Below, piece by piece: positions 19,022-49,224 of a stretch of 64,000 bases of DNA (position 1 is its first letter; each line of letters opens with the position of its first letter). The translations under genes and the position numbers were made by a program. Below the pieces are notes generated by a model. It worked only from the letters and a program-made list of their open reading frames with translations, did not search any database and was not told the origin of the DNA. Origin of the DNA: Bacilli bacterium (GTDB lineage: Bacteria > Bacillota_I > Bacilli_A > RF39 > UBA660); NCBI GenBank assembly GCA_017462455.1, contig JAFTRC010000056.1, forward strand, positions 12,078 through 76,077. Reading direction: 5' to 3'.

Positions 19022-19111
19022 ATATTGGTTGTTAAAAAAAATAAAATGTGATAAAATTGTTATGTATAGTAGAGGCTATATTATTTTGCGTATGTATAGG
19101 TGGGTGATAAC

Positions 19112-19513: not shown

Positions 19514-19533
19514 AAATAGAAAGAGGTTATATT

Positions 19534-20391: not shown

Positions 20392-20400
20392 AAGGTTAAA

Positions 20401-21579
20401 ATGCACGATAACATTTTCGAGGGGATGGACTTTGGTCCGTTAAAAGAATATTTAGAAAATGATGATATTACCGATATTTCTTATAGCAATAATGGGCAAG
20501 TGTGGTTAAAAACTTTATCTAAAGGTATATTTAGAGTAGATAATCCTGCAATAAATAATAACTTTATAGAAAAGTTAGCTTTCCAATGTTCGAATGTTAT
20601 GGGTAAAAGTTTCAATGCTGCTCATCCATTTCTGGACAGCGAAAGTGCTGAATTACGTATGAATTTTGTGCACGATTCTATAGCTAGAAATGGTATTGCT
20701 TGCGTTATTCGTAAGACACCGGCTAAGATACGTTTGGAAAGAAATAAAATTTTACAAGAAAAATATGTAACAGAAGATATATTAGATTTCTTAATAACTT
20801 GTGTACATGGGCATTGTAATATAATAGTATGTGGAGAAACTGGTAGTGGTAAAACGGAATTTGTAAAATTCTTAGCTGCTCATACGTATGAAAATGAAAA
20901 GTTAATTACAATAGAAGATACACTTGAGTTACACCTTGATAGAATATATCCTAATCGTGATATAGTAGCTATGAAAACTAATAATATAGCAAGTTATTCA
21001 GATGTACTTGTTACTTGTATGAGACAGAATCCAAAATGGATTTTGTTATCGGAGGTTCGTAGTGCGGAAGCTGTAATGGCTGTTAGAAACTCAATTTCAT
21101 CAGGGCATTACATTTTATCAACAATCCATGCTGATAAAGCTGCTTCTATACCAAACCGTATGTATAGTTTGTTAGAAACCAATCAAGATATAGATCAATT
21201 CTTAAAATCTATTTATAGATATATACAATTAGGTGTATATATACGTGGTTATCAAGATAAAGTAACTAAGAAATTCGTAAGAGAGATAGCTGAAGTTACA
21301 GAATTTTATGTAACAGAAGATAATGAAGCAAAATATAATACTCTTTACAAAAAGACACCAGATGGTGCAATATATAGAAAAAATCCTAGTAAGTATTTAG
21401 TTGAGTACTTAGAAGCTCAAGGAACTAAATTACCTCAAGGATTTATAAAAGCTGAATATGATGAAGATAAAGATGGTGGAGAAAGTGCTGATGAATTAGT
21501 TAAAGATACAATGAATGTTGTACCACCAACTAATACAGTACCACAAACACCTCAACAAAACGAAATAATTTTCGAATAG
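20401..21579 (+). CDS. CpaF/TadA-type secretion ATPase (T2SS/T4SS E family, VirB11-related)
   Basis: Walker A VCGETGSGKTE, Walker B-like KWILLSEVR, and His-box GHYILSTIHA. Confidence 0.85.
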   Translation: MHDNIFEGMDFGPLKEYLENDDITDISYSNNGQVWLKTLSKGIFRVDNPAINNNFIEKLAFQCSNVMGKSFNAAHPFLDSESAELRMNFVHDSIARNGIACVIRKTPAKIRLERNKILQEKYVTEDILDFLITCVHGHCNIIVCGETGSGKTEFVKFLAAHTYENEKLITIEDTLELHLDRIYPNRDIVAMKTNNIASYSDVLVTCMRQNPKWILLSEVRSAEAVMAVRNSISSGHYILSTIHADKAASIPNRMYSLLETNQDIDQFLKSIYRYIQLGVYIRGYQDKVTKKFVREIAEVTEFYVTEDNEAKYNTLYKKTPDGAIYRKNPSKYLVEYLEAQGTKLPQGFIKAEYDEDKDGGESADELVKDTMNVVPPTNTVPQTPQQNEIIFE

Positions 21580-21590
21580 GAGGGGAAAAT

Positions 21591-22493
21591 ATGAATACGA
21601 CTTTACTTTTTATTATAGTTGCTGCACTACTTATATTTTTAATAATATATAGAAGTAGTGTTGGAGAACAAACTTATAAGTATCTTAAGGTACAAGGTGG
21701 TAAATTATATAGTAAAGTTGCTCCTTATACATATAAAGAAATTAGAAAGAAAATTAAAGATTTAGGGCAAGATTATACAGTTCAACAATATATTGGACAG
21801 GTATTGTTGTTTGCGGCTGGTGGAGGTATAATTACATATTTATATTTCTATAACATAATTGTATCTATAATATATGCTGTAGTTGCAGTAACTGTTGTTC
21901 CTTATATTAATTATTTAAGATGTAAAAGACTTTATAGTGAATTTGTTTTTGAACAAATACAAGTTTATACTACTAACGTTATAATGGAATTTGCCACTAC
22001 TCAAAGTTTTGTTAAAGCTTTGGAGGGGGTATATTCTTCTGGAGTTTTAGAAGATCCTGTAAAAGAAGATGTTAAGGCTATGATTGATATGGCATATGAA
22101 AATGGAACTATAAATCAATCATTAGAATATATGAATGAAAAATATGATTATTATATGGTTAGAAATATGCATCAATTATTCCTTCAAATAACAAATGAAG
22201 GTTCTAAGGATGCTAGTGAATCTTTAGAAAACATGTCACAAGACATAGATATGCTTGTTGAAAATGTTTATAGAGATAGACTTGACAGAGCTGCGTTCTA
22301 TAAAAAATTTATTACTTTTGGTTTGATTTTATATTTAATGATAGGTTTAGTACAAATAATGTTAGGTGATACGTATCATCAAATGTTAGACTTGTGGTAT
22401 GTAAATTTATTATTACACCTAATAGTAATAATTAATTCTTACTTCTTATTAGCAGGAACAAAATATTATAATGAGAATGTGGGGGCTGAATAA
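21591..22493 (+). CDS. TadB-like platform membrane protein (T2SS F-family-like)
   Basis: 300 aa with an N-terminal TM, central helices, a helical cytoplasmic region and C-terminal TMs. Position immediately after the ATPase is the main argument. Confidence 0.5.
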   Translation: MNTTLLFIIVAALLIFLIIYRSSVGEQTYKYLKVQGGKLYSKVAPYTYKEIRKKIKDLGQDYTVQQYIGQVLLFAAGGGIITYLYFYNIIVSIIYAVVAVTVVPYINYLRCKRLYSEFVFEQIQVYTTNVIMEFATTQSFVKALEGVYSSGVLEDPVKEDVKAMIDMAYENGTINQSLEYMNEKYDYYMVRNMHQLFLQITNEGSKDASESLENMSQDIDMLVENVYRDRLDRAAFYKKFITFGLILYLMIGLVQIMLGDTYHQMLDLWYVNLLLHLIVIINSYFLLAGTKYYNENVGAE

Positions 22494-23284
22494 TGGAGTT
22501 TTTAATAGTAGCAATCGCAGTAATAATTATATTTATTTATAATAGTATAATAGATACTAAAAGTATTTTAGGACAAGTTAATCCTTTTTTAAGAAAATTT
22601 ATGGAAAAGGATTATGAGTTTTTACTTAGAGTTAAATATAAAGATAAAGACTTAGATGTAAATGCCTTGTTTTCTAGAAGAATAAGAGACGGAGTTTTAA
22701 TAACTATGGTAGTTATATTTATGTTAGCTATTACAGGTTATTTAACTTATATGTATGCGCTTTTAGCATTTGTAGCAGGATTTGTAGTATTTAAAAGTGG
22801 ATATACTAAATTAAAAAATTATTATAAAGCAAGATTACATTATATGGATTCTATGCTTCCATATTATTTAAAGAGTTTGGAAATTTTAGTACAACACTAT
22901 ACAGTTCCAGTAGCTCTTTCAAGAAGTATAGATACAGCTCCTGAAATATTTAGACCTGGTCTTAGAACTTTGGTAGCTAAAATAGATGAAGGAGATTCAA
23001 CTATTCAACCATATATTGATTTTGCTAATGAATATCCAGTTAGAGATTCTATGAGAATGATGAGACTTTTATATAGATTAGGTTTAGGTTCTCAAGAAGA
23101 TAAGCATGAGCAAATAATGATGTTTTCTAGAACAGTATCGTCATTACAAAATAAAGCTCGTGAACAAAAATACAAAGATCGTCTAGAGTCTATGGAAAAA
23201 AGAACCATGATGATGTTATTCGTAACAGGTGGAGGAGTAATTTTAGTTCTATTCCTATCAATGACAATAATGATGGGAATCTAA
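22493..23284 (+). CDS. TadC-like platform membrane protein (T2SS F-family-like)
   Basis: Same architecture as the preceding gene, with start and stop overlapping (ATGA-type junction). Confidence 0.5.
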   Translation: MEFLIVAIAVIIIFIYNSIIDTKSILGQVNPFLRKFMEKDYEFLLRVKYKDKDLDVNALFSRRIRDGVLITMVVIFMLAITGYLTYMYALLAFVAGFVVFKSGYTKLKNYYKARLHYMDSMLPYYLKSLEILVQHYTVPVALSRSIDTAPEIFRPGLRTLVAKIDEGDSTIQPYIDFANEYPVRDSMRMMRLLYRLGLGSQEDKHEQIMMFSRTVSSLQNKAREQKYKDRLESMEKRTMMMLFVTGGGVILVLFLSMTIMMGI

Positions 23285-23353
23285 TTTATTGATAATTAAG
23301 TTTAAATTGTGTTATAATAAAAATGTATAGATAGTGAAAGTAGGTGAGGATGA

Positions 23354-23599
23354 ATGAAAGAAGCAGCAGGAGAAGCAAATATGACAGTAATAACAATAGT
23401 TTTAATCGCAATAGTACTTGCAGTTGGTACAATTATAGTAAATAGAATGATGAATAGTTCTGAAAGAAGTTCTTGTTGTGCGTCAGTTGGTGGAGAAGTA
23501 AATGGTAGAAATTGCCAACTACCTAATGGAACAGTATTACAAGAGAATGACGCTAATAATGCTTATGGTGCATGTTTAGCTGATAATGAACAACAATAA
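23354..23599 (+). CDS. small pilin-like protein (leader MKEAAG + hydrophobic helix + 4-Cys head)
   Basis: MKEAAGEANMTVITIVLIAIVLAVGTIIV. 81 aa with a good RBS (AGGTGAGGA). Confidence 0.55.
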   Translation: MKEAAGEANMTVITIVLIAIVLAVGTIIVNRMMNSSERSSCCASVGGEVNGRNCQLPNGTVLQENDANNAYGACLADNEQQ

Positions 23600-23622
23600 A
23601 ATAATTTAGGAGGAAATAATGT

Positions 23623-24102
23623 ATGAAGGAAAGCGTAGGATATACAGTTACACTAAATATTGTAATAATGTTTATTATAATTGTTTTTGCTTTCCTTTCT
23701 GCAGCTCTTATATATTTTAAAAGCAATAAGATTGGAAATGTTATTGTAAATTCTGTTGAAAAATATGAAGGGTATAATAGCTATGCTATAAGTGAGATAG
23801 ATAAAAATATGAGTTCTTTAGGATATAATAAAGGATCAATTGAAAATTCTTGTGCTAGAAAATCACAAATAAAAGATGGTGACGTTACTTGTAATCTTAC
23901 AACTAATACTTTTGGTAAAGGAGTAAATGGTTATTGTATTTATCTTTGTGAATCTTCAAGTAATGATAAGGATAAAGGTAAGTATTATTATTATAGAATT
24001 AGAACTAATATGATGATTAATATTCCAATAATAAATGATTTATTGAATATTCCAATATATTCTAATACCAATAGGTTATATGATTTTGAAAACAATTTAT
24101 AG
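23623..24102 (+). CDS. TadE-like pseudopilin candidate
   Basis: MKESVGYTVTLNIVIMFIIIVFAF. Paralogous to the next ORF (shared EKY.GY, GY.YC.Y, YYY, IP.I.DL.N.P). Confidence 0.5.
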   Translation: MKESVGYTVTLNIVIMFIIIVFAFLSAALIYFKSNKIGNVIVNSVEKYEGYNSYAISEIDKNMSSLGYNKGSIENSCARKSQIKDGDVTCNLTTNTFGKGVNGYCIYLCESSSNDKDKGKYYYYRIRTNMMINIPIINDLLNIPIYSNTNRLYDFENNL

Positions 24103-24113
24103 GATGTGATATA

Positions 24114-24533
24114 ATGAGAGAGGCAATAGGAAGTAGTTTATTGTTAAATATAGTTGTTGTTTTTGTATCTTTAATAATACTATTTTTTGTTGGTATCTTA
24201 TCTTATACAAAAGCTTATAAAGCTAAAAATAGAATAATTGATGTTATCGAAAAGTATGGAACTTATAGTGAAGTTCCAGAAACTCAAGATGCTAGTGATG
24301 AAATAATTTCTTCATTAAGTGAAATGGGATATCAATTAGGTGCTTGTAAAAACACAAGTGGTAATTTAAATAATACCGGATATAAATATTGTGTATACAG
24401 AATTGAATCTAGTGAAGGATACTACTATAAGGTAACTACTTATATTCAATTTTATTTTCCTATAATAGGGGATTTATTTAATCCACCTGTATCAGGAGAA
24501 ACTAAAATATTAGGTAAGAGTTATAATTATTAA
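24114..24533 (+). CDS. TadE-like pseudopilin candidate (paralog)
   Basis: MREAIGSSLLLNIVVVFVSLIILFF. Paralog of the 23623 ORF. Confidence 0.5.
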   Translation: MREAIGSSLLLNIVVVFVSLIILFFVGILSYTKAYKAKNRIIDVIEKYGTYSEVPETQDASDEIISSLSEMGYQLGACKNTSGNLNNTGYKYCVYRIESSEGYYYKVTTYIQFYFPIIGDLFNPPVSGETKILGKSYNY

Positions 24534-24550: not shown

Positions 24551-25552
24551 ATGAATGTAATTGTATCGAATAAAAATCAATTGTTATTAGAAAATCTTGG
24601 AATAGATATTATAAAAGAAATGAATGGTGAATTTCAAGTAGATGAGATAATTGCAACTTTTCAAAATTTCTTTTATCAAAGAATGATACTTGACATAACT
24701 GCAATTAAGAATTATACTGATATCACTAACTTGCAAAAATTGTCAATTTCTTTAGATATGGAAAAAATTATACTTTTATTAGATGGTACAGAAGCAACTA
24801 GTAATCCTACTTTTATATCTAATTTAGTATCTATGGGAATTTATAATTTTACTAAAAATGTAGAAGGTATTCAGTATTTATATAATACTCCAAATACTTA
24901 TCGAGATGTTGCTCAGTTTCACAGGCTAGATGCTACTTTTGGAAATGCTAATATGGCAAAGCCAAATCCACAAGCTCAGTATATGGCACCTGTAGTAGAG
25001 GAAGCACCTCAACCAGAATTTTATGGTACAAGGGTTATAGGAGTAAAAAATATTACTAAACAATCTGGAGCTAGTAGTTTAGTTTATATGATGAAAAATG
25101 AATTAAGTAAAAATTATAGTGTAGTAGCTATAGAAGTTGATAAGACTGATTTTACTTATTTTAGAGATAAATCACTTGTATCTACTATTACTAGTGAAAT
25201 TGGAAGTGTTATAAATAAACATAAAGATAAAAATGTTATAATTATTGATATAAATAACAGTATAGTGGCTGAAGGCTTTTGCCAAGATGTTATATATTTG
25301 ATAGAACCATCAATAATTAAATTACAAAAACTTATGACTTTGAATGCTGCTGCATTGCAAGGGTTAAAAGATAAAAAGATAGTATTAAACCAAAGTTTAC
25401 TTAGTTCTAGTGAGGTTGCTAATTTTGAATATGAAGCAAGGGTAAAAGTATTTTATAATTTAGTACCTTTAAATGAAAGATCCAAAAACTTACCTGAGTT
25501 AAATAAATTATTAGTTAAATTGGGGTTTAGTAAACAGCAAAGCCTAATGTAG
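24551..25552 (+). CDS. TadZ/CpaE-like protein (receiver-like N-domain + ParA/MinD-like domain with degenerate P-loop)
   Basis: Architecture and position match. GVKNITKQSGASSLVYMM occupies the place of the deviant Walker A (KGGxGKT is not conserved). Confidence 0.45.
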   Translation: MNVIVSNKNQLLLENLGIDIIKEMNGEFQVDEIIATFQNFFYQRMILDITAIKNYTDITNLQKLSISLDMEKIILLLDGTEATSNPTFISNLVSMGIYNFTKNVEGIQYLYNTPNTYRDVAQFHRLDATFGNANMAKPNPQAQYMAPVVEEAPQPEFYGTRVIGVKNITKQSGASSLVYMMKNELSKNYSVVAIEVDKTDFTYFRDKSLVSTITSEIGSVINKHKDKNVIIIDINNSIVAEGFCQDVIYLIEPSIIKLQKLMTLNAAALQGLKDKKIVLNQSLLSSSEVANFEYEARVKVFYNLVPLNERSKNLPELNKLLVKLGFSKQQSLM

Positions 25553-25562
25553 GGGGAAAATT

Positions 25563-26000
25563 ATGAAGAAAAATGTATTAAAAATTTGTTTGTTTTTGCT
25601 AATTAGCTTTATTTTTATTGACTTTGTTGGCGCAGAGACGTATACTAATAACTATACGAAAGGAATAACTAGTTGTGGAAATAATCTTTTAACAGATATT
25701 CCAACTCTAGTACCTCAAATTATTAGTATAATATATACCGTAATACAAATAGCTGTACCTGTTGTTTTAGTTATAATGGGATCTCTTGATTTAATGAAGG
25801 GAATAACAGCAGGTAAAGATGATGAAATAAAAAAAGGTCAACAAATGTTTATAAAGAGACTTATAGCAGCAGCTTTAATATTCTTTGTATTTATAATAGT
25901 TAAATTAGTTGTAAGTTTAGCTAATGATGAATCAAGGACAAAGACTAATAAAATTATGAATTGTGCTAATTGTTTCATAAGAAATGAATGTGGAAATTAG
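25563..26000 (+). CDS. helical-hairpin pilin-like protein, family member A (VirB2/TrbC-like topology)
   Basis: Signal peptide, then the core IQIAVPVVLVIMGSLDLMKGITAGKDDEIKKGQQMFIKRLIAAALIFFVF and the tail CANCFIRNEC. Confidence 0.6.
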   Translation: MKKNVLKICLFLLISFIFIDFVGAETYTNNYTKGITSCGNNLLTDIPTLVPQIISIIYTVIQIAVPVVLVIMGSLDLMKGITAGKDDEIKKGQQMFIKRLIAAALIFFVFIIVKLVVSLANDESRTKTNKIMNCANCFIRNECGN

Positions 26001-26008
26001 GTGATTTG

Positions 26009-26776
26009 ATGAAGAAAAATAAATTAATATTTATCTTAGTTTTTACTGTTGTTATAGTGATGTTTGGGATAGGAAATGTAACTGCAAGAGAAAAATTGAC
26101 TTGTGTTTATGAGCAAATAACACCTGAGAACACGCAAATGATAACGTATGAAGTGCGAACTACATATGAACTTGTATATGAATTGAGTTCGTCAGATAGT
26201 AAGTTGCTTAAAGTTACAGTTTGCCATAAAATTCCTGAAAAGGAAAAATGTATAAAACAATGTGAAAGGGATACAGATTCGGAAACCTGTGCAAAAAATG
26301 TGTGCGTAGATTCTTGTTCTGATGGATCACTAACTGCATTTTCGACTGAACTCAAAGAAGGAGATGATTGTCCTGATATAGGAAGTAATGATTTTTATGC
26401 TAAAATATTAAAATCATATAAGCGTGAGTTTGTTGCTAAAGTAAATTGTGGAAATATAAAAAAAATACCACAAAAAATTCCAAAACTTACGAGTTTGGCA
26501 TTTACAATAATACAAATAGCTGTTCCAATTTTATTAGTTCTAATGGGTTCAATTGATTTATTTAAAGGAATAACAGCTGGTAAAGAAGATGAAATGAAAA
26601 AGGGTCAACAAATGTTTATAAAAAGACTTGTAGTAGGTGCTTTAATATTTTTTGTAATTGCTATAGTTAAATTGTTAGTAAGTGTGGTTGCTAATGCAAG
26701 TGACACTGCTAATATATCTAGCTGCATATCATGCTTTATGAGTAATGATTGTACAGAGTCTGTTGAGGAATCATAA
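26009..26776 (+). CDS. helical-hairpin pilin-like protein, member B, with ~140-aa Cys-rich N-terminal ectodomain
   Basis: Start moved to ATG 26009 (AGGTGA RBS). Core IQIAVPILLVLMGSIDLFKGITAGKEDEMKKGQQMFIKRL and tail CISCFMSNDC. Confidence 0.6.
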   Translation: MKKNKLIFILVFTVVIVMFGIGNVTAREKLTCVYEQITPENTQMITYEVRTTYELVYELSSSDSKLLKVTVCHKIPEKEKCIKQCERDTDSETCAKNVCVDSCSDGSLTAFSTELKEGDDCPDIGSNDFYAKILKSYKREFVAKVNCGNIKKIPQKIPKLTSLAFTIIQIAVPILLVLMGSIDLFKGITAGKEDEMKKGQQMFIKRLVVGALIFFVIAIVKLLVSVVANASDTANISSCISCFMSNDCTESVEES

Positions 26777-26793
26777 AATAAGGAGGAGTAAGG

Positions 26794-27279
26794 ATGAAGA
26801 AGAAAGTTTTATTATTTATTGCAATTTTAGGATTAATTTTATGGGCTAATCCAGTATTAGCTATGGATATTTATTCTTGTGAAAGTTCTATAAAAGGTGT
26901 TTTGATAGATGCAAGAATACCACAAATTGTTAGTACAGTAATTACTGTTATAAAAATAGTGGTTCCTGTATTATTAGTTATTTTTGGTATGTTAGATTTA
27001 ATGAAGGGTATAGTAGCACAAAAAGATGACGAAATAAAAAAAGGTCAACAAATTTTTATAAAAAGATTAATTTCAGGGGCACTTGTATTCTTTGTGTTTA
27101 CGATTGTACAATTAATTATTAGTTTTGTTGCTGAAGATAGTGAGGAAACAAATATAATGACTTGTGCGAAATGTTTTATTAATGGTGATTGTACCTATAG
27201 ATTTGAAAATGCAACATCAAAAAAATGCCCAGATGGTACAATGATAGATGATACGAAGAAATTTTGCATAGAAAAATAA
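26794..27279 (+). CDS. helical-hairpin pilin-like protein, member C
   Basis: Core IKIVVPVLLVIFGMLDLMKGIVAQKDDEIKKGQQIFIKRL and tail CAKCFINGDC, plus an extra Cys-containing C-terminal extension. Confidence 0.6.
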   Translation: MKKKVLLFIAILGLILWANPVLAMDIYSCESSIKGVLIDARIPQIVSTVITVIKIVVPVLLVIFGMLDLMKGIVAQKDDEIKKGQQIFIKRLISGALVFFVFTIVQLIISFVAEDSEETNIMTCAKCFINGDCTYRFENATSKKCPDGTMIDDTKKFCIEK

Positions 27280-27290
27280 TAGGAGGGTTT

Positions 27291-28406
27291 ATGGTTAATG
27301 CTTTAAAAAAAATAGATAAAAAGTTTTTAATTGTGATAGGGTGTATAGTTTTCTTACCTATTGTTGTAATTATATTTTTGGCAATTATACAAGGGTGCTC
27401 TAATTTAAAAACAACACATGCAAAGTATGAGCAAAAGATGATTTCTGCAATGCAAAGTTACCTTGAAGATAAAGATAATAAGCCTACAAAAGAAGGGCAA
27501 TCTGTAACAGTTAAATTATCTAAACTTGTTGACGGCGAATATATAAAATCACCAGAAAAAGCTTTAGGTGATGATACTTGTTCTGGAAGTGTTACAGTTA
27601 GAAAAAATGGTTCTACTGTTGAGGAGAATAAAGGTGGATTTCTTAATTATACTGTTAGTTTAGAATGTGAAAATTATAAAACAAATTCATTAGAAAATTC
27701 ATTAATGAAAGATTTAGTAAGTGTTGGTTCTGGCTTATATAAACAGGGAAATGAATATGTATTTAAGGGTGACGATGTAGATAATTATATAACGTTTTTT
27801 GGAACTAGTTATAGAATAGTTAGTATGGATGATGATGGTATTGTAAAATTACTTAAAGCAGAGAGTGAATCTTCTGAAGATTATTGGGATATTAAGTATA
27901 ATGTAGATACTGGTAGTGCTACAGGGAAAAATATTTACGCTGATAGTGAAATAAATAAAACTTTAATAGAAATTTATAATAATCCTAAAAAATTTAGTGA
28001 AGAGTCAAAAAAACATTTGATTTCTAAAGATATTTGTGTAGGATCAAGAGATATAAATGATTTATCTTTTACTAGTAATCCTGAATGTTCATCTGTATTA
28101 GAAAATCAAGTGGTATCTTTGTTAGGCGTTACTGATTATGCTAATGCTAGTTTAGATCCTGATTGTGTAGATTTAAATTCTAAGTCTTGTAGGAATTATA
28201 ACTATATGAGAAAGTTATTCTTAGATAGTTGGACTTATACGGCTGTATCTAGTAATTCATATGAAGTATATTATATATATAATGGATTAATAAAACATCA
28301 ATCAGCAAATCAATTTGCGTCATATAGTCTAGTAATATATGTAGATGGTGATGAAATATTATCTTCTGGTGATGGCACAGAAAAATCACCTTATGTTATT
28401 AAATAG
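27291..28406 (+). CDS. N-terminally anchored extracytoplasmic protein, unknown function
   Basis: Start moved to ATG 27291 (GGAGGG RBS). TM helix FLIVIGCIVFLPIVVIIFLAII followed by about 340 aa with several Cys. Confidence 0.5.
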   Translation: MVNALKKIDKKFLIVIGCIVFLPIVVIIFLAIIQGCSNLKTTHAKYEQKMISAMQSYLEDKDNKPTKEGQSVTVKLSKLVDGEYIKSPEKALGDDTCSGSVTVRKNGSTVEENKGGFLNYTVSLECENYKTNSLENSLMKDLVSVGSGLYKQGNEYVFKGDDVDNYITFFGTSYRIVSMDDDGIVKLLKAESESSEDYWDIKYNVDTGSATGKNIYADSEINKTLIEIYNNPKKFSEESKKHLISKDICVGSRDINDLSFTSNPECSSVLENQVVSLLGVTDYANASLDPDCVDLNSKSCRNYNYMRKLFLDSWTYTAVSSNSYEVYYIYNGLIKHQSANQFASYSLVIYVDGDEILSSGDGTEKSPYVIK

Positions 28407-28465
28407 TATTGACTTTTAAAGAAACTAAATATATAATTATTTTAGAGATAGGAGGATAATGTATT

Positions 28466-28843
28466 ATGTTTTTAGCAAATTTTGATTTACAAGGACTTTA
28501 TACTTGTGGAGAATTAGGTTTTAATTTTTCAGGAACATTTCCTTATTTAGTACACACTGCAGTTACAATTATAAAAATAGTAGTTCCAATTTTATTAATT
28601 ATATTTGGTATGCTTGATTTAGGTAAAGCTGTAGTTGCTTCTAAAGAAGATGAAATTAAAAAAGGACAACAAACATTTATAAAAAGAGTTATTGCAGCTG
28701 TTATAGTATTCTTTGTAATACAAATAGTTCAATTAATAATTTCATTTGTTTCAAATGGTGATGAAAATATTACAAGATGTTTTAACTGTTTTGTAAATGG
28801 TACTGTTGAACCTGATGAAAATGGTTGTGTAGAAATTAATTAA
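28466..28843 (+). CDS. helical-hairpin pilin-like protein, member D (no obvious signal peptide)
   Basis: Core IKIVVPILLIIFGMLDLGKAVVASKEDEIKKGQQTFIKRV and tail CFNCFVNG. Confidence 0.55.
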   Translation: MFLANFDLQGLYTCGELGFNFSGTFPYLVHTAVTIIKIVVPILLIIFGMLDLGKAVVASKEDEIKKGQQTFIKRVIAAVIVFFVIQIVQLIISFVSNGDENITRCFNCFVNGTVEPDENGCVEIN

Positions 28844-28948: not shown

Positions 28949-31309
28949 ATGTATACGTTGTCAATAAATATGTGGTTCCAAAAATTAATGAAACAATTCT
29001 TTTTTGGAATAGATCAAATTGTTTATAATTTTATATCTCAAGTATACGATTTGTTAATATCAATAGCAAGGACATCTATACTTTCGCAAGCAGATATATT
29101 AGATATGGCTGATAGAGTTTATAAGTTATTAGCTGTTTTTATGATATTTAAAGTTACTTTTTCTTTAATAACATATGTAGTAAATCCAGATGATTTTTCT
29201 GATAAGAGTAAAGGGGTAGCTAAGTTAGGAACTAATATAGTGATTTCTTTAGCTTTATTAATATTAACTCCATATATATTTAACTATGCATATAGATTGC
29301 AAACAATTATATTAGAAGATAATTCATTAGCTGCTTTGATTTTTGGAGACACTGATAAAGAGGGCAGTAGTGCGAAATTCTTAAATACCGCAGGAGATGA
29401 AATGGCTTTTATAACAATGAGTGCTTTTTTTACACCTAATGTATCGATTGATGAAATTCGAAGTTGTATTGATTTAAAAGACGAATCTGGTGATGGGTTT
29501 AATCCTAATTGTTCTGGGTTAAATAAAGATTATAACGTTATTGATGAAAAAAATAAGAATAACTTAGTCGGTGTAGTTGGAAAAGATAAAACAACAATAA
29601 TTCAGAACTATGTTGCTGGTGTAGAGCATCATAATTTAGGTTTAATGTTTAGAGCAGAAATGGCGGTTGCGACAACTGAAAATGATGAATTTATAATGGA
29701 TTATAAATATATATTCAGTACTATCGTGGGTGTTGTATTAGTTTTATTACTTATAACATTTTGTATGGATGTTGGTTTGCGTAGTATTAAACTTTCTTTT
29801 TTACAATTGATTGCTCCTATTCCAATAATATCTTATGTGGATCCTAAGAGCGGAAAAGATGGGATGTTTAAAAAGTGGTATCAAATGTGTTTTAAAACAT
29901 ATTTAAGTTTATTTATAAGATTATTAGCAATTTATTTTGCTATTTATATCATAAGCAGACTTGATAGTATGGTAGACATAGTTGATGGCTCTGAAGTTAC
30001 AAATTTATTTGTAAAAATATTTATAATTATAGGCGCATTAATGTTTGCTAAACAATTCCCAAAAATACTAGAAGGATTAGGAATTAAGTTAGATGGTGGA
30101 GGATTCACTTTAAATCCTTTAAAGAAATTAGAAAATGATGCTATTGGTGGAAAACAAATCTCAAAAGGAGCAAAAATGGCTACAAGACCTATAAAAGGCT
30201 TGGCTACTGCTGGATTAGTAGGTGGTGCTGCACTTGCTACTGGACAAGGATTTAGAGGCATTGGAAGAGCTTTTTCTGGTGCTATGAAGGGTGAAAAATT
30301 TGGGAAAAATTTTTCTAGTTCATATTCAGCTGCAAGAGCAAGAAAAAAACAAGTTGATGAAATGAGAGCTGATGGTGTAACTCCTGGAGAAGTAAGAAGA
30401 GCAAATCTTTGGAATAAATTTCATGGAACATCTAAAGCTGAACAAGTTCAACAAGTTGAAAATAAAGCTAAAGCTGTGCAATCGTATTATGATAATATAA
30501 AAAACCAAGCTATTGCTTGCGATTCTAATGATAATTCTTATACATATGTAACGGATGAAAATGGTAATAGAGTACGTCGACAAACTAAAAGTGCTAAAAC
30601 ACTTTCGAAAGAATTAGAAGAAATGAAAAAGACTCAAATTAATAGAGATTCTTTTAGAGATATAGATGGAATAAGTGCTCAACAAAAATATCAAGTAGCT
30701 GTTCAAAATAAAGATGATGAAATAGCTGTTGCAAGGCAACAGTTAAATGAGTTGAGAAGTCAAGCAATTGATACATCTAAACCTTTTGCGGAACAAATAA
30801 GAGAACGTGATATACAAAGCAAATTAGAAGAAATAGAAAGATTAGAAAGCGAAAAATCACAAATAAGTGAAGATGATTTTGATGATACTGTAGGAAAAAC
30901 TGCAGATGAACAATATGCTGAAGCAATTGAAAAGCAAAAAGAAACAATAAAAGCCAAAGAAGGAGAACTAGAAGCTAGAATTAATGATTTAGCTAATAAT
31001 AATGTATATTATGAAGATTCAACTGGTGTAGAACATACTGGTACAGGTGTGGATTCAGCGGATAAAGTTATTGAAGAATCAAAAGAAACAATGATTAAAC
31101 TTGCTAAATCTGTTAATGAGACAGGTAAATCTATTGATTCTGAGTTTAAGGATATGTTTGAACCTACTGCTGAAGATATAGAAAATGATAATATCGACGT
31201 TGTTAAGATGATGAAAACTTCAAAAGGTGCGGTTGCTCAAACTACATCTGGTAAAATGTCTGATATTAAAGATGTTGCAAAATATACTAATAAACCAAAA
31301 GGTTCTTAA
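28949..31309 (+). CDS. VirB6/TcpH-like polytopic T4SS membrane protein with long C-terminal coiled-coil/charged region
   Basis: Multiple TM helices in the first 400 aa, a Gly-rich segment, then a charged helical tail. Size and position before the VirB3/VirB4 genes match Gram-positive conjugation loci. Confidence 0.55.
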   Translation: MYTLSINMWFQKLMKQFFFGIDQIVYNFISQVYDLLISIARTSILSQADILDMADRVYKLLAVFMIFKVTFSLITYVVNPDDFSDKSKGVAKLGTNIVISLALLILTPYIFNYAYRLQTIILEDNSLAALIFGDTDKEGSSAKFLNTAGDEMAFITMSAFFTPNVSIDEIRSCIDLKDESGDGFNPNCSGLNKDYNVIDEKNKNNLVGVVGKDKTTIIQNYVAGVEHHNLGLMFRAEMAVATTENDEFIMDYKYIFSTIVGVVLVLLLITFCMDVGLRSIKLSFLQLIAPIPIISYVDPKSGKDGMFKKWYQMCFKTYLSLFIRLLAIYFAIYIISRLDSMVDIVDGSEVTNLFVKIFIIIGALMFAKQFPKILEGLGIKLDGGGFTLNPLKKLENDAIGGKQISKGAKMATRPIKGLATAGLVGGAALATGQGFRGIGRAFSGAMKGEKFGKNFSSSYSAARARKKQVDEMRADGVTPGEVRRANLWNKFHGTSKAEQVQQVENKAKAVQSYYDNIKNQAIACDSNDNSYTYVTDENGNRVRRQTKSAKTLSKELEEMKKTQINRDSFRDIDGISAQQKYQVAVQNKDDEIAVARQQLNELRSQAIDTSKPFAEQIRERDIQSKLEEIERLESEKSQISEDDFDDTVGKTADEQYAEAIEKQKETIKAKEGELEARINDLANNNVYYEDSTGVEHTGTGVDSADKVIEESKETMIKLAKSVNETGKSIDSEFKDMFEPTAEDIENDNIDVVKMMKTSKGAVAQTTSGKMSDIKDVAKYTNKPKGS

Positions 31310-31332: not shown

Positions 31333-31653
31333 ATGAATTATTCATATTTAATACCAGCAAACTCAAAAAAGAGTATGCTTATATTTGGGGTATTTAATAC
31401 AGTAGATATGATAATATTTGGTTGTGGGTTAGGAGTGTCTTTGTTATTAATGATGTTCCTTCCTGTTGACCAATTTTGGATTGCTATATTGGCAATCTCT
31501 CCTGGTCTTATAACTGGATTTTTGGTATTACCTATACCGAATTATCATAATGTAAGAACAGTAATAAAGAATGCATGGAATTTTTATACAACAAGACAAA
31601 GATATATATGGAAGGGTTGGTGTTTTGAATATGGCGAAAGAAATAAAAAGTAA
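31333..31653 (+). CDS. PrgI/TcpE (VirB3-like) small T4SS membrane protein
   Basis: 106 aa with two TM helices, directly upstream of and overlapping the VirB4 gene. N-terminus IPANSKKSMLIFGVFNTVDMIIF. Confidence 0.6.
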   Translation: MNYSYLIPANSKKSMLIFGVFNTVDMIIFGCGLGVSLLLMMFLPVDQFWIAILAISPGLITGFLVLPIPNYHNVRTVIKNAWNFYTTRQRYIWKGWCFEYGERNKK

Positions 31654-32170
31654 GTATACTGATGTACCTGTAAAAAATATAGCTAATGGTGTTATTGTGC
31701 TTGATAATAATCAAAAGGTTACTGGAGTTAAAATAATGCCAAGAAATATTTTCATACTTGATCAAAGTATACAAGATGCGATTATAATGAATCTTAAAAA
31801 TGTTTATAATGCTATTGATTATGAATTTTGGATTGTAGTTGCAGATAGACCTGTAGATATAAATGTATACTTATCTCAATTACAACTTTTGTATAATCAA
31901 ATAAATGATACTAAGAAAAGAAAATTGATTTTGGAAGATATTAATAAGGCTAATATGTTTATGAATAATAATGTTGTTGATACAGAATATTTCTTATTAT
32001 TTAAAGATAAAAATAATGATGTATTACAAAAGAGAATTCGTAATCTTATAAATAATTTTGCAAGTGCAGGGTTAACTGCATTTCAAACAAATAATGATGA
32101 TTTAAGAATGATTCTTGATAATTTCTTGAATGGTGGTCAAACTACTACTTTTGGGACGGTGTTAGCATAA
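31631..32170 (+). CDS. VirB4/TcpF-type ATPase, N-terminal segment encoded as a separate ORF
   Basis: The ATG at 31631 gives MAKEIKSKYTDVPVKNIANGVIVLDNN. The TAA stop overlaps the ATG of the next ORF (ATAATG). Confidence 0.55.
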   Translation: MAKEIKSKYTDVPVKNIANGVIVLDNNQKVTGVKIMPRNIFILDQSIQDAIIMNLKNVYNAIDYEFWIVVADRPVDINVYLSQLQLLYNQINDTKKRKLILEDINKANMFMNNNVVDTEYFLLFKDKNNDVLQKRIRNLINNFASAGLTAFQTNNDDLRMILDNFLNGGQTTTFGTVLA

Positions 32171-33954
32171 TGGATATTAGAAGTCAAATTGCTCCAAAGG
32201 GATTGGAGTTTAAACCAAATCAATTTGTTATAAGTGACAAACATGCTTGTATTTTAACTATAATAAGTTATCCTAAGTTTATTTATCCTGGATATTTAAG
32301 TAGTTTAACAAGTATGTCAGGAATAAAGGTAGTAATTAAGCATATACCTCTTCCTTTTAGTAGTATGAGTAAAATGCTTAATAAAGAACTTGCTGATTTA
32401 AAGCAAAGATATCAAGAAGAAAAAGATAAAACTATTCAAGAAAGAATAAGACAAGATTATGAATCATTAGAGATGTTTATAAGTGAATTAGCCGCTAGTC
32501 AATCTAAGATATATGATTTCCAAATGCATGTAATGATAACTGCTAATACTCAAGAAGAATTAGAAGGTAAAAAATTACAAGTAAAAAATTATTTAGAAGC
32601 TATGGAAATGAGAGCAATACCGCTTAGATTTGAACAAGATAAGGTATTAAAATCAATTCTACCAATTTATGAAAAACAAGATATAGAAGATAGAATAGGA
32701 ACTCCTATTCCTTCTCCAACAATAGCTGCTATGTATCCTTTTATATTTGATAGTATTAAAGATCCAGGATTATCTACATTACTTGGTATAGATTTTTCTG
32801 GTGGTGTAATTTTATTTAACCAATTCTTATATCAAATAAAGAAGGAACACAATCGTAATAATGCTAATATGATTATTTTGGGTACTTCTGGTAGTGGTAA
32901 ATCTACTGCAGCTAAGTTGCTTTTAAGAAGTCATATTAGAAATAATAATCAAATAGTAGTTATAGATCCAGAAGGAGAATTAGAAGAAATGACTAGTTCT
33001 TTTGATGGAGATTTTATCAGTTTAGGAAAAGGTGGATCTTTTGGTATGATTAATCCGCTTGAAGTCATAGTAGATGCTGATGAAGAAGAGATGAAACAAG
33101 GATTAGGATATACTGTTTTAACTCGTACTTTACAGACAATAAAAGCATTTTTAAAATACTATGATCCTAGTATTGAAGAAGATGTGGTTAATATGTTTAG
33201 TGAAGTTGTTCAAGAAACATATAAACGTTTTGGTATAGATTTTAATGTAGATTTTACTAAGTTTAAGTCAGAGGATTATCCTACTTTTAAAGATGTATAT
33301 GCAACTATAAAAGGTAGAATTTTATCTATGGCAGAAAAATCTCAAGAAAAAGATGTTCTTGAAAAATTAGAAATAAAAATAAGACCAATAGTTAAAGAAT
33401 TGAAATACTATTTTGATGGACATACAACTATAAAACCAAGAAGTAATTTTATAGTATTTAATATAAGAGAAATTATGAATGCAGATAAAAACATTAGAAA
33501 TGCATTATTCTTCAATATATTAAAATATGCCTGGGGATTAACTTTAGATAGTTCTATAAACACTGTAATGATGGTAGATGAAGCTCACGTATTGCTTAGT
33601 GGAGGAAATACATTGGGAGCAGACTTTTTAGCACAAATTCAAAGACGTGCGAGAAAGTATAATACTGGAACAATTATAATAACACAACAACCAACAGACT
33701 TTAGTGATCCTAGTGTAATAACACAAGGTAAAGCTATATTTGATAATGCTTCTTATTATTTAGTAATGGGATTAAAGAAACAAGCTGTTGATGATTTAGC
33801 TAAATTAATTGACTTAAACGATAACGAAAAAGAAAGTATTAAACAATATCAACAAGGTGAAGCTTTATTCGTTTGTGGAAGCAGGCGTATGAGAATAAAT
33901 GTAATTGTATCAGATGAAGAATTAGAATCATTTGGTAGTGGTGGAGGATTATAA
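32170..33954 (+). CDS. VirB4/TcpF-type T4SS ATPase (main part)
   Basis: Walker A ILGTSGSGKST, Walker B VMMVDEAHVLL, and IIITQQPTDF. Confidence 0.85.
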   Translation: MDIRSQIAPKGLEFKPNQFVISDKHACILTIISYPKFIYPGYLSSLTSMSGIKVVIKHIPLPFSSMSKMLNKELADLKQRYQEEKDKTIQERIRQDYESLEMFISELAASQSKIYDFQMHVMITANTQEELEGKKLQVKNYLEAMEMRAIPLRFEQDKVLKSILPIYEKQDIEDRIGTPIPSPTIAAMYPFIFDSIKDPGLSTLLGIDFSGGVILFNQFLYQIKKEHNRNNANMIILGTSGSGKSTAAKLLLRSHIRNNNQIVVIDPEGELEEMTSSFDGDFISLGKGGSFGMINPLEVIVDADEEEMKQGLGYTVLTRTLQTIKAFLKYYDPSIEEDVVNMFSEVVQETYKRFGIDFNVDFTKFKSEDYPTFKDVYATIKGRILSMAEKSQEKDVLEKLEIKIRPIVKELKYYFDGHTTIKPRSNFIVFNIREIMNADKNIRNALFFNILKYAWGLTLDSSINTVMMVDEAHVLLSGGNTLGADFLAQIQRRARKYNTGTIIITQQPTDFSDPSVITQGKAIFDNASYYLVMGLKKQAVDDLAKLIDLNDNEKESIKQYQQGEALFVCGSRRMRINVIVSDEELESFGSGGGL

Positions 33955-33975: not shown

Positions 33976-36414
33976 ATGCCAGAGGAATATGAAAATTTAG
34001 AAGGACAAGAACAAAGTCCTGAAGCTCAAAGATTATCTGAAGCTCAGATGAAGAAACAGCGTAATGTTGCCAACAATGCTAATAATGTTAAAGCTGCAGC
34101 AGACATCGCTTCAAAGAGTGCTAATCCATATGCTAAAGCTATTGGAGGAGCCGTTAAAGTTGCTGATAAGATTAGTGGTGGAAAAGCTTCTGAAAAATTA
34201 GGTAAAGCCTTGAATACTGCTAATAAATTAACACCTGGTGGAAGAATTGCTCAAGGAATGTTAAATAAAATGAGTGAAAGTGGAACCACAGATAGGATAA
34301 ATAAGGCAGTAAATAAAAAAAATCAGACTAGAACTCAAAATATGGCTAGTATGAAAGGTAGTTCAGAAGTTCCTGGTAAGGATTCTGGAAGTTCATTAGA
34401 TAGAAGAGAAGTAGAAGACAATACATCTGATGTGGGAGAGGTTAATTTAAAAGCAACCGCTAAATTTTTAAAAATTGCTTTTCCAGTGATGATGGCAGCT
34501 GTTGTGTTAGTAGTATTTGTTGGTTTATTTATGATTCCCGCGATGGCTGTTGAAAGTTTATTTGGTATAGGAAGTGCTGATGAAGTTTCAGATTCAGAAT
34601 TTAATGACAAAATGGGTAATGTTAAAGAGAGTGACTTAGAGGAAGATAATGCTAAATCTGATCAAACTTTCGAATATGATTTGTTTATTGATAATGAATC
34701 AACTAAATTTAGGAACTCTAAATTGAAGAAGATAAATAAGTTTAGACAATATAATGAAGCAGATATTGAGGAATTAAAAGATTATTATCCAGATATAGAT
34801 AGTTATGTAGATGAAGCAGGAAATAATATGAATACTGTTTATACTTTTTTCTTTAAACTACATTATTTATATAAACATTATGATAATAAGTATAATGTAG
34901 AATTAGATATGCCTTTATTAATGTCTACTTTGACAGTTAAGGAAAAGGATATGAATATAGTATTTAATTCAAATATTATAGGTTATGGTTACACTCAATA
35001 TAAAGAAGGAGAGAATTATTCTAAATTTTTATATGGAGCTGAACGTATTTATAATTCTACAGAAAAAAATGCTAAATATGATATAGAAGTATTAGCTGAA
35101 AATATGGTATCGCAAGTACCTTATAATGCAGAAGATGAAGAAAATACTTGTACTCAAACAGAAGCAGTAGCTGGTATGTGTTATAAAGTAGATAATGATA
35201 AATATAAGGAATTTTTAAAAACTTTTTTAGCAGAAAAGTATTCTATAGATGATGAAACTCAAGTTAAGGGGCTAATAGTTCAAATTTATGATGTTAAAGA
35301 GCAATATGAGGATTTAGTTGGTGATTACGAGGAACAAGAACCTACAATAAATTCAGCTACTTCTACTACGTATTGGTGGCCAATAGGTAGTAAAGAAACC
35401 ACTGTTGTAGATGGAAAAACATTTGCTACAGGGGATCCGGAAACCACAATTGTAACCTCTCCGTATGGTTATAGATCAGATCCAATAACAGGAGCAAGAA
35501 AGTTGCACACTGGTGTGGATATAGCTGGTGGTAGTGGTTTAGGTAATGTAAATATAATTGCTGCACGTGATGGTGTAGTTGTTTATCCAACAAAAGGTGC
35601 AAATACGTCTTGTCCTTCAAATTATAGTAGTACAAGTTATAATTGTAGTAGTGGGGCATATGGAAATTATGTAATTATTCAACATAGTGATGGTAATTAT
35701 ACTTTATATGGACATTTACATGCCAATACAATAACTGTAACTGCTGGTGATAGTGTAAAGCAAGGTCAAGTTATAGGTAAGATGGGTACTAGTGGATATT
35801 CAACTGGGGCACATTTGCACTTTGAGGTTAGAGAAGGTGCTAATTCATATTATTCAACTGTAGAACCTTTAGGATATATTTCTGCAGAAAATCCACGTAT
35901 TGTATCAACAGGAGGAGAATTTTTATCTTGGTTAAATAGTTGGGAAGGACATTCTCCTATTAGCGGAGATTATTATATTGTAGAAGATATTGGCGATGGA
36001 GTTAGAACTGTTGGCGGTGGTGTTACTTTGGAACACAATGCAGGTAGATTTGCTGCCTATGGAATAGACATAAATGATTATCCAGTAGGAAGCCAAATTT
36101 CTAAGTCTATTGTAGATTCAATACAATTAGAGGAGATAGCTTCTAAAAGAAGCTATATTGAAAATGTATTATCTAATAATTCAATAGTATTAGAAGAAAA
36201 ACAAATTCAGGCTTTAGTTTCACAAATGTATAACTGTGGAAATATAAATGGATTTGTAGCTGCATATAAAGAATATGGAAATACTGATACTTTCTATGAT
36301 AATTGGTTTTTTAGAAATATAATGAGAGGTTCACAGTTTGAAAAGGGGTTAACTCGTAGAAGAAATGCTGAGTGGTCACTGTTTCATGCGGGAGAATATA
36401 TCTATAATGGTTAG
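33976..36414 (+). CDS. membrane-anchored bifunctional cell-wall hydrolase (M23 peptidase + lysozyme-like domain), TcpG/VirB1 analogue
   Basis: M23 motifs HTGVDIAG and GAHLHFEVR. The C-terminal WEGHSP...GGGVTLEHN...QMYNCG resembles phage-type lysozymes. TM helix at about aa 170-195. Confidence 0.8.
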   Translation: MPEEYENLEGQEQSPEAQRLSEAQMKKQRNVANNANNVKAAADIASKSANPYAKAIGGAVKVADKISGGKASEKLGKALNTANKLTPGGRIAQGMLNKMSESGTTDRINKAVNKKNQTRTQNMASMKGSSEVPGKDSGSSLDRREVEDNTSDVGEVNLKATAKFLKIAFPVMMAAVVLVVFVGLFMIPAMAVESLFGIGSADEVSDSEFNDKMGNVKESDLEEDNAKSDQTFEYDLFIDNESTKFRNSKLKKINKFRQYNEADIEELKDYYPDIDSYVDEAGNNMNTVYTFFFKLHYLYKHYDNKYNVELDMPLLMSTLTVKEKDMNIVFNSNIIGYGYTQYKEGENYSKFLYGAERIYNSTEKNAKYDIEVLAENMVSQVPYNAEDEENTCTQTEAVAGMCYKVDNDKYKEFLKTFLAEKYSIDDETQVKGLIVQIYDVKEQYEDLVGDYEEQEPTINSATSTTYWWPIGSKETTVVDGKTFATGDPETTIVTSPYGYRSDPITGARKLHTGVDIAGGSGLGNVNIIAARDGVVVYPTKGANTSCPSNYSSTSYNCSSGAYGNYVIIQHSDGNYTLYGHLHANTITVTAGDSVKQGQVIGKMGTSGYSTGAHLHFEVREGANSYYSTVEPLGYISAENPRIVSTGGEFLSWLNSWEGHSPISGDYYIVEDIGDGVRTVGGGVTLEHNAGRFAAYGIDINDYPVGSQISKSIVDSIQLEEIASKRSYIENVLSNNSIVLEEKQIQALVSQMYNCGNINGFVAAYKEYGNTDTFYDNWFFRNIMRGSQFEKGLTRRRNAEWSLFHAGEYIYNG

Positions 36415-39567: not shown

Positions 39568-39855
39568 ATGTTTGAAAGCATTTCTGTAACAGAATTAAAA
39601 AAATTAAATAATATAAATTTAATAGATATTAGAAGTATAGAAAAATATAATAATAAACATATATTAAATGCAAGAAATATTCAAATGGAACAACTACTTG
39701 TATATCCTAATAAATATTTAAATAAATATGATAAATATTATATTTATTGCCAAAAAGGAATACAAAGTAGAAAGTTATGCCAAATATTAAAAAATAGTGG
39801 TTATAATGTAGTAAATGTATCTGGTGGGTATGAAGCTTGGGTTTTAAATGAATAA
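39568..39855 (+). CDS. rhodanese-domain protein
   Basis: Active-site loop YCQKGIQSRK and GGYEAW near the C-terminus. Confidence 0.8.
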   Translation: MFESISVTELKKLNNINLIDIRSIEKYNNKHILNARNIQMEQLLVYPNKYLNKYDKYYIYCQKGIQSRKLCQILKNSGYNVVNVSGGYEAWVLNE

Positions 39856-49223: not shown

Positions 49224-49224
49224 T

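Follow-up and report, generated by a model that had tools for sequence, protein, structure and literature searches.

The closest described parallel to the locus studied here comes from Patescibacteria, where a 2025 survey found VirB2-like genes (PF04956/PF18895) near virB4, with 441 arrays of 2-11 genes that show 25% identity on average and are mostly free of a relaxase (PMC12102498). The same survey reports Gram-positive type IV secretion system (T4SS) classes without virB2 homologues (PMC12102498), and a review of December 2025 describes VirB2 and VirB5 as absent from Gram-positive systems, with Patescibacteria excepted (PMC12857230). The six-pilin array of Ca. Southlakia epibionticum is essential (PMC12102498, PMC12857230). 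Full-text literature searches returned no description of such arrays in Bacillota. Here we describe an array of four related genes (25563-28843, forward strand) in a 64,000-nucleotide stretch of contig JAFTRC010000056.1 (assembly GCA_017462455.1, a Bacilli bacterium), which is called the window below. The best explanation we can offer, and one that we hold with somewhat better than even confidence, is that the products are disulfide-stapled, PF18895-related hairpins serving as pilin-like (VirB2-analogous) subunits of an adjacent chromosomal T4SS. That T4SS resembles the type found in the integrative and conjugative elements (ICEs) of Mollicutes, or MPF-FATA (mating-pair formation) type.

The Patescibacteria pilin arrays are the closest parallel, and the general solution matches. 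In both cases tandem, divergent two-helix pilin-like genes stand by virB4/virB6 of a monoderm MPF-FATA-like T4SS on the chromosome, the hosts are uncultured, have small genomes and also carry type IV pilus genes, and the best Pfam family is the same. The Patescibacteria arrays mostly go without a relaxase, and here none was detected among the scanned open reading frames of the window, several of which are unannotated. Array size agrees as well: 2-11 genes there, four in the window, and 1-8 (mode 4) in the 60 loci of other genomes in which the neighbourhood is contiguous. What is distinctive here is the other phylum, the putative cysteine staple, the CxxCF motif, the fixed paralogue order, the grafted heads and enzymes, and the fusion with a Tad-like cluster. 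The window host belongs to Bacillota (metagenome-assembled genomes (MAGs) of the class Bacilli) and its copies score below the PF18895 threshold. Three traits of the window family, namely the CxxCF motif, the KxxxAxK[DE][DE]E.KK loop and the invariant Cys pair on the flanks, were not found described for Patescibacteria; the hypervariable character of the heads likewise sets the window family apart.

The module array and its secretion neighbourhood

The array consists of four open reading frames (ORFs) on the forward strand, p1 (25563-26000, 145 aa), p2 (26009-26776, 255 aa), p3 (26794-27279, 161 aa) and p4 (28466-28843, 125 aa). Their coordinates, the shared module, the loop motif and the array tails CANCF, CISCF, CAKCF and CFNCF are exactly as given by an earlier description made from the letters alone (the sequence-only reading), which overlooked the 371-aa gene that splits the array (27291-28406) and an invariant Cys, within [ST]CG, just ahead of helix 1. 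For p2 the mechanical ORF runs from 25988, and gene callers together with a Shine-Dalgarno site favour 26009; Shine-Dalgarno sites precede all six module genes. That there are six copies is also right: a six-frame scan of the window for the loop K[DE][DE]E.KK[GA]Q found exactly six in frame, four in the array and two beyond it, in the long-headed paralogues p5 (43550/43586-44917, forward strand, 443-455 aa) and p6 (59870-61060, forward strand, 396 aa). These two outlying genes are surrounded by housekeeping genes (RNase R, PTAC, peptidase U32), p6 standing between the PTAC and peptidase U32 genes. The G+C content of the window is 21-32%.

Aligned, the six copies define a module of ~110 aa with a mean column identity of 54%. 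It leads from [ST]CG through helix 1, which is hydrophobic with an invariant Pro and Gly, to the loop K..A.K[DE][DE]E[IML]KK[GA]Q..[FL][IV]K[RK], helix 2, a short acidic linker and Cys. The C-terminal motif CxxCF(x4)C occurs in five of the six copies and reads CANCFIRNEC in p1, CISCFMSNDC in p2, CAKCFINGDC in p3 (followed by a 21-aa Cys-containing tail) and CLECFLTNNC in p6; p5 has a single Cys there (..GCGIIDL). Ahead of the module, p1 has a signal peptide and a mature N-tail of 13 aa, p2 a signal peptide and a Cys-rich, beta-rich, hypervariable head of ~120 aa, and p3 a signal peptide and almost no head, and p4, the smallest paralogue, has neither signal peptide nor head. The paralogue modules of the window are 40-57% identical to each other, and a 240-nt module core is present four times at 62-76% DNA identity, from which it follows that the duplications are old.

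Directly downstream of p4 the genes of the T4SS begin, all on the forward strand. The first encodes a VirB6/TrbL-like polytopic membrane protein of 786 aa (28949-31309), which matches PF19597 TrbL_4 at 36.1 bits (cutoff 27) and the Mbov_0396 family NF045889 at E 4.4e-11. A VirB3-like gene (31333-31653), a VirB4 N-terminal-domain-like gene (31571-32170) and a VirB4 ATPase gene (32170-33954) follow, and their products match positions 2-77, 105-276 and 295-893 of NF045975, the last with 343 bits (below the cutoff of 590; E 2.2e-102) and with additional AAA_10 and TraG P-loop matches. By these matches, 31333-33954 is a split version of the fused VirB3-VirB4 protein of Mycoplasma ICEs, laid out in three overlapping or adjacent ORFs. 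The set is completed by a VirB1-like cell-wall hydrolase of 812 aa with M23 peptidase and lysozyme domains (33976-36414) and a VirD4-like type IV coupling protein of the CD1115 family (37420-39510; PF02534 at E 3.5e-57, NF045973 at 296.7 bits with a cutoff of 250). No relaxase or integrase domain was found in the ORFs of the 64-kb window that were scanned with Pfam, several of which carry no annotation and no search having been aimed at relaxases; likewise, no ICE hallmarks were found in the window.

This neighbourhood recurs in other genomes. A set of 82 fetched loci, 78 of them from other genomes, was searched with the window proteins and the module profile hidden Markov model (HMM) as queries, and it contains 268 module ORFs. 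The order found across the 82 loci starts with unknown proteins of 524 aa and 219 aa, DUF5411, a CpaB-like protein, a PF00437 ATPase and two membrane proteins; continues with small pilin-like proteins, the conserved protein u333, the module genes with the membrane protein u380 inside, and the VirB6-like, VirB3-like, VirB4-N-like and VirB4 genes; and ends with the M23/lysozyme hydrolase and the coupling protein. The stretch from u333 through the module array to the VirB6-like, VirB3-like and VirB4-like genes is contiguous in 60 of the 78 loci of other genomes, and in 44 of these 60 a Tad-like ATPase lies in range. The proposed tie between the array and the adjacent machine is supported by this position, directly upstream of the VirB6-, VirB3- and VirB4-like genes.

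The ICEs of Mycoplasma share with the window the order of pilin-like protein (Mbov_0395, NF045849), VirB6-like transmembrane protein (Mbov_0396, NF045889) and VirB3/VirB4 (Mbov_0397, NF045975), and they supply the best NCBIfam models for the VirB6-like and VirB4-like proteins of the window. They differ in that the window has an array in place of a single pilin-like gene, divides VirB3-VirB4 among three ORFs, has a VirB4 below the equivalog cutoff, and encodes modules that the Mbov_0395 model does not detect. A relation to this pilin-like family had been proposed as a check, and it yielded nothing for the window: against NF045849 (cutoff 40 bits) the four array copies gave no match at E<=0.1, p5 and p6 gave none at E<=0.05, and a p5-type relative in locus L032 reached 15.2 bits (E 0.012). 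As a separate observation, the modules of p1, p3, p4 and p6 give weak in-register matches to the N-terminal part of Mycoplasma MMCAP2_0566, the C-terminal part of whose model matches the VirB6-like protein of the window, so the hairpin may occur fused to VirB6-like proteins elsewhere. The module also weakly matches the CD3337/EF1877 mobilome membrane protein of NCBIfam.

The sequence-only reading had suggested a search with an HMM of the six copies, and this recovered a large unannotated family. The six-module profile finds more than 4315 proteins in a database clustered at 90%, none of which has a Pfam domain or a name beyond 'hypothetical protein', and an exhaustive HMMER search of 1.84 billion cluster representatives (50% identity) returned 9351 at E<=1e-3 and 4681 at E<=1e-10. 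Relatives are encoded on at least 324 stretches among GTDB contigs taken from one genome per species. They are labelled as MAGs of uncultured Bacilli, Bacillota, 'Tenericutes' or 'Erysipelotrichaceae' and come from human, mouse, rabbit, ruminant and other guts; the few found under other taxon labels are probably binning errors. One complete chromosome with relatives (OW818670.1) measures 1.49 Mb and has eight copies in its array. No relatives were found on plasmids (tblastn of p4) or in viral contigs (profile scan), and a phage or plasmid origin is therefore not supported.

Topology, cysteines and paralogue order

Hydropathy gives two strong hydrophobic segments in each of the six copies, and the loop that connects them contains 6-7 Lys/Arg against 3-4 Asp/Glu in every copy (net charge +3). 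By the positive-inside rule the loop would be cytoplasmic and both ends outside, and this predicted topology, which is the same in all six copies, places the conserved Cys residues and the heads consistently on the outer face. AlphaFold2 (AF2), run on an alignment of 71 sequences, gives a plain helical hairpin (residues 49-82 and 86-120, predicted local distance difference test (pLDDT) ~75-85). A hairpin behind a signal peptide had been proposed; the hairpin stands for all six copies and the signal peptide, of the MKK-type Sec class with a small-x-small cleavage site, for five. The exception is p4, which has none, and an in-frame upstream start was looked for and does not exist.

Across divergent members, and likewise in the 268 locus copies, four features are near-invariant: the Cys before helix 1, the D..K that ends helix 1, the KK of the loop and the Cys after helix 2. 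The upstream Cys is combined with CxxCF in 208 of the 268 locus copies and with a single downstream Cys in 46, and p5-type modules contain exactly two Cys, one per flank. After crude removal of signal peptides, 314 of 343 database proteins (92%) have an even number of Cys (classes 4, 6, 8, 10, 12, 14 and 16), where about half would be expected by chance if the sequences were independent, which as relatives they are not. Given that the flanking Cys are invariant and the counts even, the simplest reading is a disulfide between the Cys ahead of helix 1 and the one behind helix 2, which would tie together the outer ends of the hairpin; the copies with CxxCF(x4)C would have a second small disulfide loop, with further pairs in the heads. 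A divergent module gene of another locus (L083, 4136-5022) is the back-to-back neighbour of a thioredoxin/PedC-like gene, whose product might act on the predicted disulfides as an oxidoreductase; the window showed no gene of this kind.

T-pilin and RP4 TrbC are cyclised head to tail. The canonical VirB2/TrbC proteins (PF04956; T-pilin, RP4 TrbC, F TraA) have in common with the window family a signal peptide, a two-helix hairpin, a short basic loop and a gene upstream of virB3/virB4, and where T-pilin and TrbC join their ends by cyclisation, the window family would do so by a disulfide. Unlike them, the family studied here has fused heads and enzymes and a monoderm host, and it shows no detectable sequence or profile similarity to VirB2/TrbC.

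When each of the 268 module ORFs is assigned to the window paralogue that it matches best, the order p1-p2-p3-[u380]-p4 proves to be conserved, p1 among others having positional orthologues in other species; in many species a p5-type long-headed gene stands between p4 and VirB6. The p4 module is the best preserved, with a median identity of 64% to other species as against 48-54% for p1-p3 (61-85% when p4 is taken by position). The headless p4 is the candidate major subunit. In the window the usual p5 slot is empty, with 105 bp from p4 to VirB6, and the p5 copy is found ~4 kb past the cluster, beside an insertion sequence (IS) transposase (DDE_Tnp_1, 41592-42827, reverse strand), which suggests that p5 was displaced by an IS-linked rearrangement.

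It had been thought that the copies might be alternative, interchangeable pilins. This does not agree with paralogues that are ancient and fixed by position, which point to a set of distinct parts and not to a variation cassette; alternative or antigenic-variation cassettes are ruled out by the positional orthology across species and by a DNA identity of only 62-76%. As far as the sequences tell, the module copies are distinct, anciently diverged parts of one apparatus.

Put together, these characteristics allow a mechanism to be proposed. The proteins would be exported by Sec and their signal peptides cleaved, p4 inserting without one. Each hairpin would then be placed in the membrane so that its basic loop K..K[DE][DE]E.KK.Q..KR is cytoplasmic and its two ends are external, an arrangement supported by hydropathy and charge. 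A disulfide between the two flanking Cys, ahead of helix 1 and behind helix 2, would be a covalent counterpart to the head-to-tail joining in T-pilin and TrbC, the second Cys pair closing a loop in the CxxCF copies. A platform of the VirB4- and VirB6-like proteins could extract the subunits and build a fibre or a wall-spanning stalk, in which headless p4 would be the bulk subunit and p1 and p3 minor ones. Finally p2, p5, p6 and other dispersed paralogues may display N- or C-terminal passengers on the surface, where these could contact or attack a target cell; since both termini are predicted to point outward, such passenger domains would be surface-displayed.

Pilin-like subunits, surface anchors and other readings

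The N-terminal parts had been described as ranging from nothing to about 140 Cys-rich residues, and in the array, with the signal peptide counted, the heads do range from 11 aa in p4 to 144 aa with 8 Cys in p2. The outlying copies of the window have heads of 252 aa and 360 aa, and among the 268 locus copies head length extends from 4 to 589 aa. The p2 head has no BLAST match in the 78 other loci. Full-length homologues of p2 exist at 37-49% identity, and what their heads retain is limited to a C-x-Y close behind the signal peptide and a C-P some 25 residues ahead of the module, the interior being rich in indels. AF2 models the p2 head as a beta-rich domain (pLDDT 82-94), for which a fold search against the PDB gave no match (E>=0.4). 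Diversification of the heads, which had been suggested, is seen on comparison with a close relative (locus L086): the alignable part of the p2 head is 38% identical at the amino acid level (nonsynonymous divergence, dN, 0.71, with indels) and the p2 module 79% (dN 0.115), with 88% (dN 0.063) for p1, 84% (dN 0.110) for p3 and 96% (dN 0.024) for the neighbour u333. The p2 protein measures 255 aa in the window and 216 aa in the relative. Ratios of dN to synonymous divergence (dS) are rough in this comparison because dS is near saturation.

Passengers are also found at the other end. In some database members the module is N-terminal, with an enzyme or adhesin domain attached to it through a Ser/Thr/Asn-rich linker, and the domains fused in relatives include SGNH/GDSL hydrolases (GDS...DGLHY), an alpha/beta-hydrolase esterase (GFSAGG), dockerin-like repeats and Listeria-Bacteroides repeats. 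The idea of cargo-bearing anchors is thus substantiated in the wider family, and fusions at either end of the module are compatible with both ends of the hairpin being predicted outside. Two fusion genes were inspected, and both stand alone among housekeeping genes. Gram-positive modular type IV pilins (for example Streptococcus sanguinis PilB/PilC) and the disulfide-dependent ComGC combine a polymerisation module with a grafted functional domain. They resemble the window family in having a conserved module with a grafted domain and extracytoplasmic disulfides in a monoderm, and differ from it in that fold, signal peptide and assembly machine (type IV pilus as against T4SS) are unrelated.

The family assignment depends on PF18895 (T4SS_pilin), whose gathering score is 26.6 bits. 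Of 71 close relatives, 48 have it as their top family. The same is true of 21 of 30 deliberately divergent modules, where any other family matches at most 6, and of 24 of 68 long members, which match it at E<=1e-3 with a best E of 2e-9. The matches are always in one register, from profile positions ~5-12 to 71. The p5-type relative in the orthologous array of locus L032 reaches 31.9 bits and so passes the threshold; a single-sequence search with this module gave one match only. On this basis the family is treated as a divergent branch of PF18895, linked transitively via relatives, the window copies themselves being below threshold. The view that the module could be assigned to no described family must accordingly be qualified: it is correct insofar as the window copies are sub-threshold, and is not upheld with regard to the transitive link and to the similar arrays of Patescibacteria (PMC12102498, PMC12857230).

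Several observations count against the reading of the module proteins as pilin-like subunits of the T4SS. The window copies score 16.3 (p1), 17.0 (p3) and 21.0 (p4) bits against PF18895, and 20.3 and 19.6 bits in the outlying genes, all below the gathering score, and p2 has no match. A nematode transmembrane family (DUF621) matches 39 of the 71 close relatives, nearly as often as PF18895, a match of the hydrophobic-bias kind that indicates compositional noise. VirB2/TrbC homology, for which a profile comparison had been proposed, is not detectable: PF04956 is absent from all Pfam scans of module proteins, and hhalign of the module profile with a VirB2/TrbC alignment (annotated genes from Agrobacterium, Sinorhizobium, Sphingobium and Bradyrhizobium plasmids) gave a probability of 0.14%. 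A sequence and profile search of the PDB with the module produced no match and hence no pilin, and Foldseek of the p1 AF2 model against the PDB produced generic helical hairpins only (E>=1) and no pilin, so that this fold search cannot discriminate. The 'pilin' label of PF18895 is itself inferred, and to our knowledge no PF18895 fibre has been seen so far. The array sits between two machines, and its assignment to the T4SS rather than to the Tad-like cluster rests on family and topology. Large heads (<=589 aa) and fused enzymes are hard to accommodate in every subunit of a helical fibre, and the spread of many fused copies over housekeeping regions means that these copies may function independently of the T4SS. 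The term 'pilin-like' refers here to the family label, the topology and the gene position and not to homology with a proven pilin.

The last of these points lead to the main rival, according to which the module would serve generally to hold displayed domains at the cell membrane, no copy would ever polymerise, and proximity to the T4SS would reflect co-regulation or a static channel role. We consider this rather unlikely. Passengers, enzymes included, are fused at either end, many copies lie far from any T4SS, very large heads seem incompatible with dense helical packing, and a link between the module and proven pilins is found in neither sequence nor structure, all of which speak for an anchor. 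On the other hand, three of the four array copies (p1, p3 and p4) are essentially passenger-free and the most conserved, which would be odd for a mere anchor; the position directly upstream of VirB6/VirB3/VirB4 is kept in the 60 of 78 loci; PF18895 is the only consistent family match; and a strictly conserved cytoplasmic loop together with the predicted disulfide staple suggests a specific interaction.

The sub-threshold matches of the window, and the similar scores of several unrelated transmembrane families, also bear on whether these are other small proteins with two transmembrane helices that look pilin-like by composition only, such as channel parts of the VirB3/TcpE type, holin-like proteins or bacteriocin-immunity proteins. 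TcpD and TcpE are indeed small membrane proteins whose genes adjoin virB4 in Gram-positive systems (PMC12857230). This reading we find scarcely probable, considering that the window has a separate VirB3-like gene at 31333-31653, matching the N-terminus of the fused VirB3-VirB4 model, that signal peptides, extracytoplasmic paired Cys, fused extracellular domains and 1-8 copies in fixed order fit none of VirB3, holins and immunity proteins, and that viral contigs and plasmids yielded no relatives.

Upstream of the array lies a putative Tad/type IV pilus-like cluster (19100-24533, forward strand), with DUF5411, a CpaB-like protein, a PF00437 ATPase (20401-21579), two membrane proteins and three small pilin-like proteins (23354-23599, 23623-24102 and 24114-24533; 81, 159 and 139 aa), in each of which a hydrophobic helix comes after the common leader M[KR]E[AS]xG. 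The best NCBIfam matches of the ATPase are VirB11 and a TadA-family model, both below cutoff. The module proteins could in principle be pilins or accessory subunits of this machine and not of the T4SS, as the array starts directly after the cluster, u333 always precedes the array, and all genes are on one strand with short gaps. It is nevertheless very unlikely. A class III signal peptide and one N-terminal helix characterise type IV and Flp pilins, in contrast to the Sec-type MKK leaders and paired helices of the module proteins; three pilin-like genes already belong to the Tad-like cluster itself; the profile matches of the module are to T4SS_pilin and Mycoplasma ICE proteins; and in one locus (L081) the Tad-like genes are reordered while the array, with u333 still directly before it, remains directly upstream of VirB6. 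Assignment of the hairpins to the T4SS as pilin-like subunits remains the reading that we prefer.

Neighbouring genes and implications

The Tad-like cluster of the window resembles a 'pilin-like' cluster reported for the gut clade TANB77 (PMC11680825). Equivalence of the module with the TANB77 'pilin-like proteins' (PMC11680825) was considered and is ruled out, as those are single-helix Tad-type pilins, like the small proteins upstream of the array. The conserved super-cluster opens with a gene for a 776-aa protein with a SpaA/prealbumin-like fold domain (14386-16716), after which come the genes for the conserved 524-aa and 219-aa proteins; the 776-aa protein may be a surface adhesin of the same apparatus.

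Two conserved proteins accompany the array. The first, u333 (24551-25552, forward strand, 333 aa), is by synteny always immediately upstream of it and has no Pfam, NCBIfam or PDB match. The second, u380, is the product of the gene that splits the array (27291-28406, forward strand), a bitopic membrane protein with one N-terminal transmembrane helix and a Cys-containing extracytoplasmic domain, found inside the array in 45 of the 78 loci. Searches of Pfam, PHROG and the PDB gave no match for it. Its alignment has 32 invariant columns, six of them Cys, and the N-terminal half is fast-evolving, with 66% identity to a relative whose u333 is 96% identical. We regard u380 as a candidate assembly or tip factor. 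A PHROGs scan of the unannotated neighbours and the long-headed copies gave no match.

ScpA/ScpB genes border the cluster at one end, and genes for rhodanese, RmuC, an IS transposase and RNase R at the other. A rhodanese-domain gene (39568-39855, 95 aa) directly follows the coupling protein both here and in another locus (L030), and in a third (L044) RmuC and rhodanese genes adjoin module genes. Two adjacent paralogous PGA_cap genes (CapA-like, capsule synthesis) lie at 48099-50385 by smpB and are unrelated to the array.

A far-reaching extension of the pilin-like reading can be formulated, and we consider it improbable. It would see in the locus a relaxase-less chromosomal super-locus of Tad-like and T4SS genes in small-genome gut Bacilli, whose toolkit is shared with Patescibacteria by descent or transfer and whose product is a true monoderm conjugative-type pilus of disulfide-cyclised subunits. 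Such a pilus would act as a modular display and delivery platform for adhesins and envelope-degrading hydrolases from dozens of dispersed genes, and would serve an obligate epibiotic or parasitic cell-to-cell lifestyle and not DNA conjugation.

What, then, does the array mean for the family and its hosts? Reviews name Patescibacteria as the sole exception among Gram-positive T4SSs, which otherwise have no VirB2-type pilins (PMC12857230, PMC12102498), and an equivalent, more elaborate array would now be present in Bacillota, so that the question whether monoderm T4SSs build pili extends beyond Patescibacteria. The family of 9351 clusters has stayed unnamed because most of its members are below the Pfam threshold, and a dedicated profile would name thousands of 'hypothetical proteins'. 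A disulfide staple instead of cyclisation would be a specific and testable solution, and the design is modular, with hypervariable heads and hydrolases grafted onto a pilin-like module. The hosts are uncultured bacteria that abound in the guts of humans, mice, rabbits and ruminants, and a contact apparatus conserved among them could account for their dependence on other cells.

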